Source: a virus (lineage: Duplodnaviria; Heunggongvirae; Uroviricota; Caudoviricetes). From it: DNA of 15,244 bases. Made by a program: the position numbers and the translations under genes. This document shows positions 12,054 to 14,009 of this stretch, piece by piece. The notes beneath the pieces were generated by a model. That model saw only the letters and a program-made list of their open reading frames with translations. It was not told where the DNA came from and made no database searches. How positions within the stretch are numbered: the stretch's first letter is position 1; every line of letters begins with the position of its first letter. The stretch lies in the IMG/VR virus record IMGVR_UViG_2695420523_000022; one strand, 5' to 3'.

Positions 12054-12273
12054 GTACCCCTCCGCATTTTTTTTCGTTAGAAATAAGCGTTCTTCTTTCC
12101 TGTTCATCGCTCAGGAATACGCAGACCTCACCGCTAAGGCGTTTAAGTAAGCCGATGATTGCCCCTGATTCGCTGTCGGTCATCATGCCAGGGTAATCCT
12201 CTGCCAGTGCGCAAATAACTTCGATTTGGTGGGCGCGTTCTGCTGCCTGTTGTAGTGTGATTTCCTGGCTCAT
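12043..12273 (-). CDS. Hypothetical protein (76 aa)
   Basis: ATG at 12273 overlapping the upstream stop (ATGA); SD AGGGGG 8 nt upstream. Confidence 0.45.
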   Translation of the reverse strand: MSQEITLQQAAERAHQIEVICALAEDYPGMMTDSESGAIIGLLKRLSGEVCVFLSDEQERRTLISNEKKCGGVHVQ

Positions 12274-12470
12274 AAGCCTACCCCCTGACGAATACGGGCA
12301 GCAAATACCATCACGCAGCCAGCCGGAGATTGCTGGCGTGCTTCCTGTTCGCTGGTGGCCTCAATGGTAATCACGCGCGGTTGTGCCGTGCTCAGGGCGA
12401 TAAAACGCCAGATGTATTTATTCAGGTTGTGCGAGTCCCGCCCTTGCGGGTGTATGGTATAATTTCTCAT
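12270..12470 (-). CDS. Small protein (66 aa), first gene of the leftward operon; possibly Icd-like (P4-type host cell division inhibitor family), tentative
   Basis: ATG at 12470 with SD GAGG at 5-nt spacing; MRNYTIHPQGRD...IWRFIALSTAQPRVITIEATSEQEARQQSPAGCVMVFAARIRQG resembles Icd-like satellite proteins as I recall them. Confidence 0.4.
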   Translation of the reverse strand: MRNYTIHPQGRDSHNLNKYIWRFIALSTAQPRVITIEATSEQEARQQSPAGCVMVFAARIRQGVGL

Positions 12471-12567
12471 AGCTGCCTCGATACTGTTGCTATCGTTGGT
12501 GGTTAGACGCCCTGCATGTGTTGCGAGCACTGCGGGGCGTTGCTTAATTTGAGTAACAAAACTCAAA

Positions 12568-12648
12568 CTGTGCGCACAGATTAAAATCATGTGTGCGCAC
12601 ATGTCAATACTTAACATCTCATTTTTTTTACTGTATTGTGTGCGCCCA
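12568..12648. promoter_or_regulatory. Divergent promoter region with three TGTGCGCACA-type operators (12569-12578, 12592-12601, imperfect 12639-12648)
   Basis: Leftward promoter: -35 TTGACA (revcomp of 12602-12607), 16-nt spacer, -10 TTTAAT (revcomp of 12580-12585); one operator fills the spacer, one sits at the predicted start site. Rightward promoter: -35 TTAACA 12611-12616, -10 TATTGT 12634-12639, overlapped by the third operator. Confidence 0.6.
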
Positions 12649-12675
12649 TAAAGTCCATTTAAGTGAGGTGCATCA

Positions 12676-12873
12676 ATGTCTAGCGGTAACAAAAACAACA
12701 AATCAGCAAAGAAAAATATTCGATTCCCACATGAGCTTATAGATGGGATTGATGCCAGCGTTGAACAAGAAAAATTAACTAATCCTAGTGCTAATTTTTC
12801 CGCATGGGTCTTAGATGCCTGTGGACGCAAATTAAAATATGAACAGCGCCGGAAGGCCAAAGAATCAGAATAA
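12676..12873 (+). CDS. YlcI/YnfO-family (DUF3950) small protein, likely ribbon-helix-helix DNA binder (65 aa); candidate island repressor
   Basis: NIRFPHELIDGIDASV...NFSAWVLDACGRKL matches the YlcI pattern (NIRFP...NFSAWVIEACRRRL) as I recall it; SD GTGAGGTG 6 nt upstream; divergent from the operator-bearing promoter. Confidence 0.65.
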   Translation: MSSGNKNNKSAKKNIRFPHELIDGIDASVEQEKLTNPSANFSAWVLDACGRKLKYEQRRKAKESE

Positions 12874-12930
12874 TCACTATCAGCGCCGTGGTGTGAGGAA
12901 CTACGGCGCATTTCTTTACAGGAGTAGACA

Positions 12931-13116
12931 ATGAACAACGAAGAATTACGGGAAATCGCATTATCCATACTTGAAAGACAGGTAGAAAAAAAATTAAGAG
13001 AAATGGATGAAATGCCTGACCATGAACAGGAAGCAAGGCCAAAAAGATTTGCCCTTGAGGATTTTCTTAAAAATTGCCCAAGAAAGATGAGATCGTGGCG
13101 TTGTTGTCCGCCCTGA
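12931..13116 (+). CDS. Hypothetical protein (61 aa) downstream of the ylcI-like gene
   Basis: ATG at 12931 with strong SD AGGAG at 6-nt spacing; MNNEELREIALSILERQVEKKLREMDE... Confidence 0.5.
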   Translation: MNNEELREIALSILERQVEKKLREMDEMPDHEQEARPKRFALEDFLKNCPRKMRSWRCCPP

Positions 13117-13288
13117 TGACAGATTTGCCAACCAGCCAAAAATGTGGCATCGTTGTCGATGCATAGTGTAATCAACATGTATATCATATTTTTGCCTGTA
13201 ATCCGGCAATTGTGGCGCTTCTTCACACAGTTGATATAATTCCAATGCTCATATTTATTTTTTGTGCAGCAGGTTAATCGTTCACAAA

Positions 13289-13318
13289 GGCGCTCAGGTA
13301 ACTGGGCGCTTTTTGTTA
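13289..13318 (+). terminator. Rho-independent terminator between the convergent alpA and ylcI-like transcripts (probably bidirectional)
   Basis: GGCGCTCAG-GTAA-CTGGGCGCT (9-bp stem with two G-U pairs) followed by TTTTTGTT; CCTTTGTG on the other strand. Confidence 0.6.
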
Positions 13319-13463
13319 TGCCTGAAAAACCCCAATTTTGTTGTTTTTCAGTTTCACCAGGGCGAACGAATCCCCGCCCACGTTCTGGCGTATATTCAAT
13401 CTTCATGGTTATAGCTCTGTGTTCAGATGATTGATGTGTGGCGGCTGCGTGCCGCCAGCGTGA

Positions 13464-13652
13464 TTAATGAACTGCCTTGCAGCTATCCTTCCAGGCCAGA
13501 ACCTCGGATAAAGACCAGCCAACGGAACGACCGCCAAGTTTACGACGTGATGGGAATTGTCCGGCCTTTTCCAGGCGGTAGCGGCATGAGCGGCTAAGGC
13601 CTGTTAGCTTTTCGCATTCTTTTTCACGTATAAACCGATCAGTGCTTAACAC
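13464..13652 (-). CDS. alpA: AlpA-family phage regulatory protein / excisionase-like wHTH (62 aa)
   Basis: LTGLSRSCRYRLEKAGQFPSRRKLGGRSVGWSLSEVLAW is the AlpA signature; GTG start at 13652 with SD AAGGGGG at 5-nt spacing. Confidence 0.8.
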   Translation of the reverse strand: MLSTDRFIREKECEKLTGLSRSCRYRLEKAGQFPSRRKLGGRSVGWSLSEVLAWKDSCKAVH

Positions 13653-13930
13653 TATTGCCCCCTTTCGTTTCTTAAAGAGTTATTTCGTGTTCTATTGCGT
13701 TGGGATGTGTCTGATTGTGTCAGGATGATTCAGAGTTGGCAAATGTTGAGGCCGCATGGTTTACAGAAAGAGGAATAATCAGGATAAAATCATTTAAATT
13801 CATGTTAATACAAAGGCATAAAATATTGTTTCATGCCTTTTTTCTCGCTATTTAAAGAGTGATTCGCTAGTGTATAAAAAACCAGTAACACATTAAAAAT
13901 CAGCTACTTATAAATCTGTACACTTTTTCG

Positions 13931-13980
13931 CCTCTTGTTCGTAGTTGTTCCGCATTGTTGCTCATTGTTGCACGTTGTAT
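13931..13980 (-). promoter_or_regulatory. Five tandem 10-bp units each containing TTGTT (GAACAA on the minus strand) between int and alpA
   Basis: cctcTTGTTC gtagTTGTTC cgcaTTGTTG ctcaTTGTTG cacgTTGTAT; same unit and cgtg spacer as the arrays at 251-280 and 7753-7782. Confidence 0.55.
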
Positions 13981-13993
13981 CTGTTCGCATATC

Positions 13994-14009
13994 CAGTATG
14001 CGCATACTG
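13994..14009. promoter_or_regulatory. 16-bp perfect palindrome CAGTATGCGCATACTG, 18 bp beyond the int stop; candidate protein-binding site
   Basis: Exact dyad symmetry; no flanking U-tract on the int strand, so not a canonical terminator. Confidence 0.4.

Follow-up and report, generated by a model that had tools for sequence, protein, structure and literature searches.

A 65-residue YlcI-like protein is likely to be the autoregulated ribbon-helix-helix (RHH) repressor of the leftward operon of the satellite element studied here, with a putative antisense RNA over the first gene of that operon forming an additional layer of control. This combined reading, which we consider probable, is built on in silico comparison of related loci, where we observed a conserved operator geometry, covariation between operator and protein, and covariation with strand bias in the leader RNA.

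The window (the whole stretch of DNA analyzed, 15,244 bp) holds an element of ~15 kb which encodes int, alpA, a replication module, major capsid protein, protease, portal, connectors, HNH, TerS and TerL, while tail genes are absent from the PGAP annotation of a 100% identical region (NZ_CP116067.1), in which the element is inserted at tqsA. By this gene content, which includes Pfam matches to AlpA and AAA_25, the element is a capsid-forming PICI (cf-PICI). The same divergent-region layout was found in 35 related loci of the Enterobacterales and Pasteurellaceae, comprising 34 loci from other genera (Serratia, Pectobacterium, Klebsiella, Rahnella, Xenorhabdus, Pantoea, Brenneria, Proteus, Morganella, a Pasteurellaceae strain and others) and EcCICFT073, the prototype Gram-negative PICI, in which the same module of icd-like gene, operator region and ylcI is present, its ylcI being C_RS30120. 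The common order is the icd-like start, hairpins, O1, 23 bp, O2 beside TTGAC, a T-rich stretch, a TAnnGT hexamer fused to O3, and ylcI. The operator class of the window was present in 69 of 5,426 E. coli genomes and never in two copies per genome. The features of the region are as follows.

12270..12470, minus strand: icd-like gene, 66 aa, first gene of the leftward operon, start at 12470 with a Shine-Dalgarno sequence
12455..12463, plus strand: Pas, extended -10 TGgTATAAT just inside the icd-like gene, putative antisense RNA promoter
12470..12555, plus strand: putative cis-antisense RNA of ~85 nt (inferred ends), complementary to the icd-like start codon, Shine-Dalgarno sequence and leader
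12479-12495, plus strand: HP3, stem-loop of the putative antisense RNA
12507-12540, plus strand: HP2, GC-rich stem-loop followed by a U-rich tail
12548..12567, minus strand: HP1, TTTGAGT/ACTCAAA, 5' end of the leftward mRNA
12568..12579: O1, CTGTGCGCACAG, 12-bp palindrome in GTG-N6-CAC register, covering the predicted start (~12571) and the final 2 nt of the leftward -10
12578..12583, minus strand: leftward -10 TAATCT, 18-nt spacer, from the anchored consensus across loci (TAnnGT pattern)
12591..12602: O2, GTGTGCGCACAT, in the leftward promoter spacer, abutting the -35 or overlapping it by 1 nt
12602..12607, minus strand: leftward -35 TTGACA
12611..12639, plus strand: rightward (ylcI) promoter TTAACA-17-TATTGT, from a promoter scan, with its start predicted at ~12646
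12638..12649: O3, GTGTGCGCCCAT, one core mismatch, its first GT being the last GT of the rightward -10, covering the ylcI start site
12676..12873, plus strand: ylcI-like gene, 65 aa, proposed RHH repressor (Pfam DUF3950, NCBIfam YlcI_YnfO_N)
12883..12909, plus strand: terminator-like hairpin after ylcI, with a homologous hairpin 3' of ylcI in CFT073
12931..13116, plus strand: orf61, candidate ORF of 61 aa with a Shine-Dalgarno sequence, 3' of ylcI
~13289-13316, plus strand: terminator after orf61
13464..13652, minus strand: alpA (Phage_AlpA, E = 5e-18), upstream of the icd-like operon in the same direction and convergent with ylcI-orf61

The initial annotation described two perfect copies and a third imperfect copy of a 10-bp palindrome in this region, and these were found: TGTGCGCACA occurs exactly at 12569-12578 and 12592-12601, and a one-mismatch copy, TGTGCGCCCA, at 12639-12648. 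The whole window has no other site within one mismatch of TGTGCGCACA, and the three are clustered inside 80 bp between ylcI and the leftward icd-like/replication operon. Shuffled windows contained a mean of 0.78 sites each; six of 200 reached three sites and none of these were clustered. Comparison across loci extended the unit to a 12-mer, GTG-N6-CAC. The core of this 12-mer varies from locus to locus and agrees within one locus, whereas the flanking GTG and CAC do not change, nor do the 23-bp spacing or the position of the sites with respect to the -35 and -10. Spacings in the window are 23 bp and 47 bp, and the 23-bp distance between O1 and O2 was kept in 24 of 28 loci. These properties support a role of the palindromes as operators for a sequence-specific protein which the element itself encodes. 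The geometry that had been proposed, with one palindrome in the leftward spacer, one at the predicted start and one at the divergent -10, also holds, and supports an arrangement in which occupancy would block both divergent promoters, O2 lying against the -35 and O1 and O3 being fused to the two -10 hexamers. O3 is probably an autoregulatory site weaker than O1 and O2. L007-L009 have a perfect copy of it and several other operator classes a degenerate one, so autoregulation may not be general. No class-matched operators were found elsewhere in the elements, for example near alpA or int; in this search own-class cores gave 0.145 matches per locus compared to 0.187 for cores of other classes. 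The satellite master repressor and lysogeny-type switch suggested at first thus gain no support.

The leftward promoter itself was less well described at the outset. Its consensus -35 was correctly read, TTGAC(g/a) being kept in 31 of 31 distinct loci. The -10 originally named, TTTAAT (12585..12580, minus strand, 16-bp spacer from TTGACA), lacks the A at position 2, was not reported by the promoter scan of the window and is not conserved across loci; the conserved hexamer is TAATCT, and a promoter scan of locus L008 independently returned TTGACA-18-CATACT. Since TTTAAT is unconserved and the conserved -10 sits at 18-bp spacing, the promoter, which had been called strong, is not demonstrably so, and because this -10 is weak and the spacer 18 bp long it may need an activator. 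On the rightward side the -10, TAT(A/T/G)GT, is conserved across loci; the -35 is unconserved and its region is T-rich. Nor is ylcI the only divergent gene, as first stated, given the second plus strand ORF, orf61. The latter has weak similarity to an ORF adjoining ylcI in CFT073 and no counterpart in the remaining related loci, its conservation being confined to E. coli.

Assignment of the 65-residue product to the YlcI/DUF3950 family was borne out by profile matches above curated cutoffs (PF13132, DUF3950, 30.1 bits against a cutoff of 25; NF041551, YlcI_YnfO_N, 59 bits against a cutoff of 30) and by a match to phrog_949 (E = 1.9e-27). Between 124 and 266 homologues were found, all of ~60-70 aa, with R16-F17-P18 and N40-F41-S42-x-W44-V45 as family invariants. 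The RHH fold remains plausible, as judged from an AlphaFold2 monomer (pLDDT 75) with helices at residues 19-33 and 41-63 after an extended N-terminus, marginal Pfam matches to four RHH families and a profile alignment with P22 Arc. In the predicted arrangement a strand at approximately residues 12-17 (KKNIRF), which would form only in the dimer, is followed by helix 19-33, the NFS turn and helix 41-63. Alignment by hhalign placed KSAKKNIRFPHELIDGIDA on Arc residues 6-24, a register in which K12, N14 and R16 correspond to Arc Q9, N11 and R13; the alignment with Mnt was in register and very weak. Positions two, four and six before the conserved proline have their counterparts in MetJ K23/T25 as well. 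A PDB sequence search with the YlcI family profile returned nothing relevant, Foldseek of the model gave no match in PDB or BFVD, and a second protein-database profile search had only DUF3950 proteins among its best 120 matches, with no bridge to named RHH families. That the family has no firmly assigned function, as noted initially, agrees with the searchable literature, itself an incomplete sample, in which we found no functional study of DUF3950/YlcI/YnfO and none of an RHH protein of PICIs or of a cf-PICI or EcCICFT073 repressor.

Comparison of the loci identified YlcI as the protein whose sequence tracks the palindromes, a conclusion supported by several measures of covariation. The operator core followed residues 10-14 of YlcI, with a Mantel r of 0.64 (residues 15-56 gave 0.105) and a partial r of 0.639, a value reached in none of 10,000 permutations. 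This signal is partly confounded by physical linkage, with flanking DNA correlating at r = 0.2-0.38. When non-operator DNA between the operators and the specificity codons was used as a linkage control, the UTR gave r = 0.32 and the hairpin region r = 0.20, compared to r = 0.57 for the YlcI N-terminal residues. The columns best associated with the core were K12, N5, N14 and A11; columns 12 and 14, which align with Arc Q9 and N11, are thus among the four most core-associated on comparative evidence. At half-site position 5, residue 12 is K with G, T with A, and Y or F with T, and at position 6 N14 goes with C. Exceptions to this code are L027, with KKN and a different core, and L010 and L011, which have G14 with the core of the window. 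In a reverse search, 20 IMG/VR contigs carried two TGTGCGCACA sites 13 nt apart, and 19 of these had a YlcI gene within 500 nt (residues 12-14 being KKN in 17, KKG in one and KKY in one); in the remaining one the region is truncated at the contig end. On account of the core covariation and the alignment with the base-contacting strand of Arc and MetJ, the proposal that YlcI is an operator-binding RHH repressor is well supported in silico.

It is very unlikely that some other factor (the Icd-like protein, AlpA, orf61, or a host or helper protein) binds the palindromes and that YlcI does something else. The Icd-like protein does match phrog_6196 and phrog_1743, both annotated as 'transcriptional repressor', and AlpA is a DNA-binding regulator encoded in most of the related loci, but the operator core did not covary with either the Icd-like protein (r = 0.023, p = 0.31) or AlpA (r = -0.02, p = 0.55), and both were rejected as operator binders along with orf61, which is missing from most loci. 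Loci L013, L030 and L032 encode near-identical Icd-like proteins and have three operator classes, with YlcI residues YKG, KKN and KKH, respectively; the operator core is TTTAAA in L013 and TGAACC in L032. A host factor cannot account for the differing operator classes found in one genome (L003 versus L005, L024 versus L030). The dyad within an over-long 18-bp spacer is reminiscent of MerR-type control; however, the same site is also present at O1 and O3, where such logic is inapplicable. We give next to no credence to a structural role of the palindromes, for example as terminator hairpins, repeats of an origin or sites of recombination, in place of protein operators. A scan did flag the O2 palindrome and T-rich stretch as a terminator-like feature on the minus strand, but 5-6 bp make too weak a stem for termination, kilobases separate the palindromes from the replication genes and origin, and a structural role does not fit a core that changes across loci within constant outer bases, spacing and promoter register.

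That YlcI binds the operators without being the maintenance repressor, quiescence then resting on the lack of AlpA, appears unlikely to us. YlcI could then be a Cro/Arc-like post-induction damper, an autoregulated accessory regulator or an antitoxin-like guard of a toxic Icd-like gene. AlpA is necessary for EcCICFT073 induction and sufficient if overexpressed, alpA and int have no operators nearby, and the leftward promoter has a weak -10. The controlled operon opens with a division-inhibitor-like gene that the putative antisense RNA also covers, and RHH proteins are often antitoxins. Against this, ylcI, like the genes for Mnt and CI, diverges from the operon that it would control, and YlcI would therefore be made while the operon is off. 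In addition, the promoter preceding the whole replication/packaging operon has two high-quality operators over its -35, spacer, -10 and start site.

For the preferred reading, in which YlcI is the repressor, we propose that one YlcI dimer would bind each 12-bp GTG-N6-CAC operator, and that occupancy of O1 and O2 would silence the promoter from which the icd-like, accessory, replication and packaging genes are transcribed leftward. Because O3 is fused to the ylcI -10 and appears weaker in the window element, its occupancy would result in negative autoregulation of ylcI. Residues 5 and 11-14, in the arm and strand at the N-terminus, would set the specificity, which would have diversified into heteroimmune classes with matching operators. 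Overexpression of AlpA alone induces EcCICFT073 (PMC6092414), so that any repression by YlcI can be overridden and would be one control layer; YlcI cannot be a dominant lock on the island. Our leading guess for derepression, which is speculative, is that AlpA-dependent upstream transcription reads through ylcI in antisense into the operon.

The leader of the operon gave evidence of an RNA element. The icd-like start and its Shine-Dalgarno sequence are kept in all loci and NCBIfam phage_ICD_like matches residues 19-62 of the product; the longer start annotated by PGAP (12617) is probably wrong, and PGAP itself uses the short start in CFT073. At Pas, 25-26 of 27 loci had a TAnnnT hexamer with G at -14 at the same distance, compared to 4-16% of random windows, and a promoter scan of L008 gave TATACA-16-TATCAT with TG at this position. 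Compensatory changes were found in 12 of 18 RNA pairs, which none of 500 shuffles reached. When the non-Watson-Crick pairs were read on the mRNA strand there were 36 A·C as against four G·U, and the plus strand fold was more stable than that of the mRNA strand in 26 of 27 loci. The putative RNA has a fold energy of -39.9 kcal/mol (z = -4.8) and a conserved single-stranded stretch, GUUG(G)UGGUUAGA. The covariation and the G·U asymmetry indicate a plus strand antisense RNA of ~85 nt over the icd-like ribosome-binding site; transcribed from the extended -10 inside the icd-like gene and ending at the GC-rich hairpin, it would silence this first, division-inhibitor-like gene of the operon. HP1, taken from per-sequence folds, is variable in sequence and forms a hairpin in most loci. 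A simple terminator scan left HP2 unflagged in the window and three other loci, owing to the bulge within its stem and the length of its loop. An Rfam scan of 12200-13700 (E up to 10) gave chance-level matches only, with no C4 or isrK. This antisense-RNA layer was absent from the initial annotation.

The immI region of phage P22 encodes two RHH repressors, Mnt and Arc, with overlapping divergent promoters Pant and Pmnt and the sar antisense RNA. The window resembles it in having a small RHH repressor, as predicted, divergent from a silenced operon, operators within overlapping back-to-back promoters, a short cis-antisense RNA (here putative) over the ribosome-binding site of a downstream gene, and a YlcI strand in register with the base-contacting strand of Arc. 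It differs in that YlcI does not match Arc or Mnt significantly by either sequence or structure, in that each site is a single 12-bp dyad, apparently for one dimer, rather than a 21-bp tetramer site, in having three sites and one repressor gene where P22 has two repressor genes, and in an operon of satellite icd-like and replication genes in place of the antirepressor. The immI of P1/P7 (c4 RNA, icd, ant) and the CI RNA of P4 share an operon headed by an icd-family gene and held down by a leader-encoded small RNA. Some Gram-negative PICIs carry P4-like CI/seqA RNAs (PMC10111431). The C4 and CI RNAs, however, lie on the same strand as the operon and are processed, whereas the G·U bias puts the putative RNA of the window on the opposite strand; the region is also without a C4 or isrK match in the above Rfam scan and additionally has a candidate protein repressor.

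In the SaPIs and Gram-positive PICIs, Stl and Rpr are likewise satellite repressors encoded divergently from the replication/packaging operon with operators between, and YlcI may work like them for the leftward operon. It is not a member of this group. Stl and Rpr are much larger helix-turn-helix proteins with a helper-binding domain and with int on their side, whereas YlcI, at 65 aa, has no room for a sensor domain and no helix-turn-helix domain in the Pfam search, and int and alpA are encoded on the opposite strand. Dependence on the activator AlpA is a known trait of Gram-negative PICIs (PMC6092414). As in MetJ, CopG and omega, the short dyad operators would be read by alternating residues of an N-terminal strand; YlcI differs from these in belonging to the distinct DUF3950 family with its own NFSxWV helix-2 cap and in that its Lys/Asn-rich N-terminal arm also covaries with the operator.

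A wider generalization, that RHH proteins of the YlcI type are the maintenance repressors so far missing in Gram-negative PICIs, cf-PICIs and related satellites, EcCICFT073 among them, and that helper phages induce the islands by neutralizing these proteins, is one we regard as doubtful. The helper could act by subunit poisoning or competition from its own YlcI/YnfO paralogue. Phage lambda encodes an unannotated 64-aa YlcI homologue, orf64 at 48109-48303, ~200 bp from cosN; around it we found no satellite-type operators, only the R sites of cosB. If the generalization were true, YlcI, antisense RNA and AlpA would together make up an immunity system of three layers, similar to immI, whose specificity classes could be exchanged and whose recognition code could be read.

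On the preferred reading, YlcI would fill a repressor role formerly not known in Gram-negative satellites of this type. This would be the first proposed function for the y-ome/DUF family YlcI/YnfO/DUF3950, with a predicted residue-to-base code which is simple and testable by swaps, and the heteroimmunity classes would explain why otherwise similar islands differ in a short operator region. The putative antisense RNA over the icd-like gene is previously unreported. Orthogonal pairs of a 65-aa repressor and 12-bp operator would serve as parts for engineered PICI-based delivery vehicles. As an ORF of ~60 aa, missed or added late in annotations, ylcI is easily overlooked; a ylcI candidate sits in EcCICFT073, the same island used for the AlpA experiments.

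The initial annotation had described a strong leftward promoter with a palindrome in its spacer, another at its start site and an imperfect third copy upstream of the divergent gene. We found TGTGCGCACA exactly at 12569-12578 and 12592-12601 and TGTGCGCCCA at 12639-12648; these putative operators (O1, O2 and O3, respectively) lie between the minus-strand icd-like gene and ylcI, and were the only sites in the whole window within one mismatch of the palindrome. The -35 element was confirmed as TTGACA at 12607..12602 on the minus strand, with TTTAAT 16 nt further on. The use of TTTAAT as the leftward -10 could not be upheld, as a T replaces the key A and the hexamer was neither listed by the promoter scan nor conserved; as conserved among the loci described below, the leftward -10 in the window is TAATCT (12583..12578). 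Rightward promoter elements were reported by the scan at 12611-12639 (TTAACA-17-TATTGT). The 65-aa ORF at 12676-12873 scored above curated thresholds for both Pfam DUF3950 and NCBIfam YlcI_YnfO_N, in agreement with its proposed YlcI identity. It is not the only divergent gene, as had been stated, since a second plus-strand ORF (orf61) with its own Shine-Dalgarno sequence is present at 12931-13116.

A family profile built from 24 members retrieved 34 loci from one-genome-per-species contigs, with source taxa including Serratia, Pectobacterium, Klebsiella, Rahnella, Xenorhabdus, Pantoea, Brenneria, Proteus, Morganella, Arsenophonus, Erwinia, Enterobacter and a Pasteurellaceae strain. The order upstream of ylcI was identical in all loci: the icd-like start codon and Shine-Dalgarno sequence (other strand), conserved hairpins, O1, a spacer of about 11 bp, O2 abutting TTGAC, a T-rich stretch, TAT(A/T/G)GT fused to O3, and ylcI. 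The start-to-start distance of O1 and O2 was 23 bp in 24/28 loci. When 31 distinct loci were aligned at their -35, the leftward consensus was TTGAC(g), an 18-nt spacer holding O2 and TAnnGT, and in locus L008 the scan independently reported TTGACA-18-CATACT. In the register common to the loci the 10-mer is the inner part of a 12-mer operator, GTG-N6-CAC. At both promoters the first GT of the operator is the last GT of the -10, and therefore a bound protein would mask the -10 and the start site at each of them; at the leftward promoter the spacer beside the -35 would be masked as well. The operator and promoter geometry originally proposed, though not the strength of the leftward promoter, was borne out. 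In two loci the ylcI match lacked the N-terminus: in L031 (Erwinia tracheiphila) the 5' part of the coding sequence is broken by an A-run and the operators are intact, and in L035 (Symbiopectobacterium) no in-frame start was recovered and one operator is apparently lost.

The operator core varies between loci, but its copies agree inside each locus, which calls for a specificity factor encoded by the element itself. The classes observed are listed here.

YlcI residues 11-14 and operator core in the compared loci
AKKN (DKKN in L030): core TGCGCA; the window, L007-L009 and L030; the frameshifted L031 has the same operators
x[YF]KG: core TTTAAA (CTTAAA in L006); L006, L013, L018, L019, L023 and L034
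TTKG (ITKG in L021): cores CA(T/C)ATA, TA(C/T)AAA and TTTATG; 15/34 loci, including L004, L005, L016, L017, L020-L022, L024-L026, L028, L029, L033 and L035 (N-terminus not recovered in L035)
AKKH: core TG(T/A)ACC; L015 and L032

Among the 31 distinct loci operator distance was correlated with YlcI residues 10-14 (Mantel r = 0.64; partial correlation 0.639, matched by 0/10,000 permutations) and little with residues 15-56 (r = 0.105). The columns most associated with the core were K12, N5, N14 and A11. With half-sites written as GTGxxx, position 5 was G with K12 (35/40 half-sites), A with T12 (27/36) and T with Y or F12 (22/24), and N14 accompanied C at position 6. Because the codons concerned adjoin the operators, a control for linkage was run. 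The 5' UTR between operators and codons gave r = 0.32 and the hairpin region 0.20, while third codon positions of residues 15-30 gave 0.19 compared with 0.57 for the N-terminal residues; physical linkage contributes to the signal but does not explain it. The reverse test used 20 IMG/VR contigs with two TGTGCGCACA sites 13 nt apart. A YlcI gene was located within 500 nt in 19 of these, the 20th being cut by the contig end, and residues 12-14 were KKN in 17 of the proteins, KKG in one and KKY in one. Four other contigs (L042, L054, L058, L059) with TGTGCGCACA pairs 11, 12 or 14 nt apart had no YlcI-like gene within 500 nt; presumably another regulator uses the same palindrome there.

In the family alignment R16-F17-P18 and N40-F41-S42-x-W44-V45 were invariant. 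The AlphaFold2 monomer (pLDDT 75) has an extended N-terminus followed by helices at 19-33 and 41-63, a strand-helix-turn-helix pattern as in Arc and MetJ. Alignment by hhalign with the Arc sequence placed KSAKKNIRFPHELIDGIDA on Arc residues 6-24 (E = 0.0064, probability only 5.9%), and in this weak register YlcI K12, N14 and R16 stand opposite Q9, N11 and R13, the base-contacting residues of Arc. The covariation, which is independent of the fold data, picks the same strand positions. These individually weak items agree with each other and with the covariation, so that YlcI is likely a ribbon-helix-helix protein.

Other proteins of the element were weighed as readers of the operators. Neither the Icd-like protein (r = 0.023, p = 0.31) nor AlpA (r = -0.02, p = 0.55) covaried with the core, and no homologue of orf61 is present in the other loci. 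Xenorhabdus loci L013, L030 and L032 have near-identical Icd-like proteins, but their operators fall into three classes, in each case the one that goes with the YlcI of that locus. The comparative evidence supports well the reading that YlcI is an operator-binding repressor, which we consider probable. As a side observation, orf61 (61 aa) is weakly similar (40% over 35 aa) to a small ORF beside ylcI in EcCICFT073 (L063 10243-10416); in L032 and L034 its position downstream of ylcI is taken by a 113-aa Cys/His-rich protein, and in most loci nothing is found there.

The 15.2-kb window region is contained at 100% identity in the E. coli DETEC-S792 chromosome, where PGAP annotation indicates a compact element inserted at tqsA. 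By PGAP and Pfam the minus strand encodes integrase, an AlpA-type regulator, the Icd-like protein, several small ORFs, DUF4222, RepA helicase, SSB and PerC. Next come genes for the major capsid protein, prohead protease, portal, head closure and connector proteins, HNH, TerS and TerL; no tail genes are annotated in the element. This gene set is that of a capsid-forming phage-inducible chromosomal island (cf-PICI). The switch lies between alpA and the leftward operon, which is headed by the icd-like gene. Behind the switch, related loci carry different replication modules (D5-type primase-helicase, DUF927/Toprim or RepA), and it is therefore a portable cassette. Genes atypical for PICIs were seen downstream of it in L007 (2177-3082), L008 (2315-3301) and L016 (1654-2304), comprising a Mu-like gpT major head protein, a second tyrosine recombinase and a ParA/MipZ-like ATPase; other kinds of integrative element may likewise use the cassette. 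Parts of a wider 1.5-kb query (12200-13700) matched 1,680 genomes. The operator class of the window was found in 69/5,426 complete E. coli genomes and never twice per genome, and different operator/YlcI classes were observed within one genome in Serratia sp. Ag1 (L003 and L005) and Xenorhabdus kozodoii (L024 and L030), a distribution compatible with heteroimmunity.

Published work on EcCICFT073 identified AlpA as an activator that helper phages induce, found that AlpA overexpression alone induces the island, and termed the global repressor "unclear" (PMC6092414). We found the same module in this element: int and alpA, with a YlcI/YnfO protein of 59 aa and a small ORF encoded on the opposite strand, ylcI divergent from a 66-aa Icd-like gene, hairpins as in the window and a doubled operator GGTGTGGCCCAC. 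Its ylcI locus tag was a late addition to the annotation, and the database record for an induced cf-PICI leaves the gene unannotated. No class-matched operators were found outside the divergent region in the compared elements, which gives no obvious sign that YlcI controls alpA or int. This result and the induction by AlpA alone limit the case for YlcI as a master repressor. The position of alpA in the window is as follows.

13464-13652, minus strand: alpA, upstream of the icd-like operon, co-directional with it and convergent with ylcI

An AlpA homologue of Pseudomonas aeruginosa is a processive antiterminator. Given this and the arrangement of alpA, a plausible, though speculative, induction route would be AlpA-dependent transcription through ylcI in antisense and on into the leftward operon. 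A perfect 12-bp palindrome, GTATGCGCATAC (13996-14007), with a 6-bp core identical to that of the operators and GTA/TAC flanks, lies in the interval separating alpA from the int stop codon, near TGTTCGCATA (13982-13991) and a tract of TTGTT repeats (13935-13975). Because the other loci have no class-matched extra sites, those at 13935-14007 probably have no connection with YlcI, and Int or AlpA may bind there instead.

Functionally the closest known system is P22 immI, with its ribbon-helix-helix repressors at back-to-back promoters and sar antisense RNA; P1 immI, where an RNA controls icd, is also similar. The switch is not a sequence member of either family, its operator format and the element it controls are different, and YlcI is not an Stl/Rpr-type repressor. 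Phage lambda has an unannotated 64-aa YlcI/YnfO homologue (J02459, 48109-48303, minus strand; L036 1810-2004) matching phrog_949 and NF041551, about 200 bp from cosN and divergent from Nu1 across cos. A paralogue of the putative satellite repressor is therefore present in helper phages. Around the lambda gene there were no GTG-N5-7-CAC sites, only the cosB R repeats.

The following elements lie in the icd-like leader and, in the case of the putative promoter, just inside the gene.

12507-12540: HP2, conserved stem-loop in the icd-like leader
12479-12495: HP3, conserved stem-loop in the icd-like leader
12455-12463, plus strand: putative antisense promoter TGgTATAAT; an equivalent element was also reported by the scan in L008

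Compensatory changes were present in 12/18 leader pairs (matched by 0/500 shuffles; slid controls 0-5). Read on the mRNA strand, the non-Watson-Crick pairs were 36 A·C against 4 G·U, and it is therefore on the opposite (plus) strand that the helices tolerate G·U. Plus-strand RNA was the more stable in 26/27 loci (mean -27.6 vs -20.0 kcal/mol), HP2 is followed on this strand by a U-rich tail, and in the window the plus strand of 12468-12560 folded at -39.9 kcal/mol (z = -4.8). In 25-26/27 loci, compared with 4-16% of random windows, the icd-like start codon was preceded at a constant distance by a -10-like hexamer with G at -14. HP2 was not flagged by a simple terminator scan and Rfam had no family matching the leader RNA. 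The simplest reading is a cis-antisense RNA of about 85 nt, with predicted ends, which would cover the icd-like start codon and Shine-Dalgarno sequence. The conserved start with a Shine-Dalgarno sequence is 12470, and PGAP uses the equivalent short form in CFT073; the 12617 start of the 115-aa Icd-like CDS of PGAP (NZ_CP116067), which would run through O1, O2 and the -35, is probably wrong, and a 378-aa minus-strand ORF (12270-13406) from a mechanical ORF list is spurious. At the apex of HP2 (12519-12531), and at the equivalent position in all loci, we observed GTG-N6/7-CAC independent of operator class, e.g. GTGTTGGCGCAC, which has the invariant frame of the operator without its variable core. 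It may serve as a low-affinity site of a generic kind, or the inverted repeat may produce it by coincidence.
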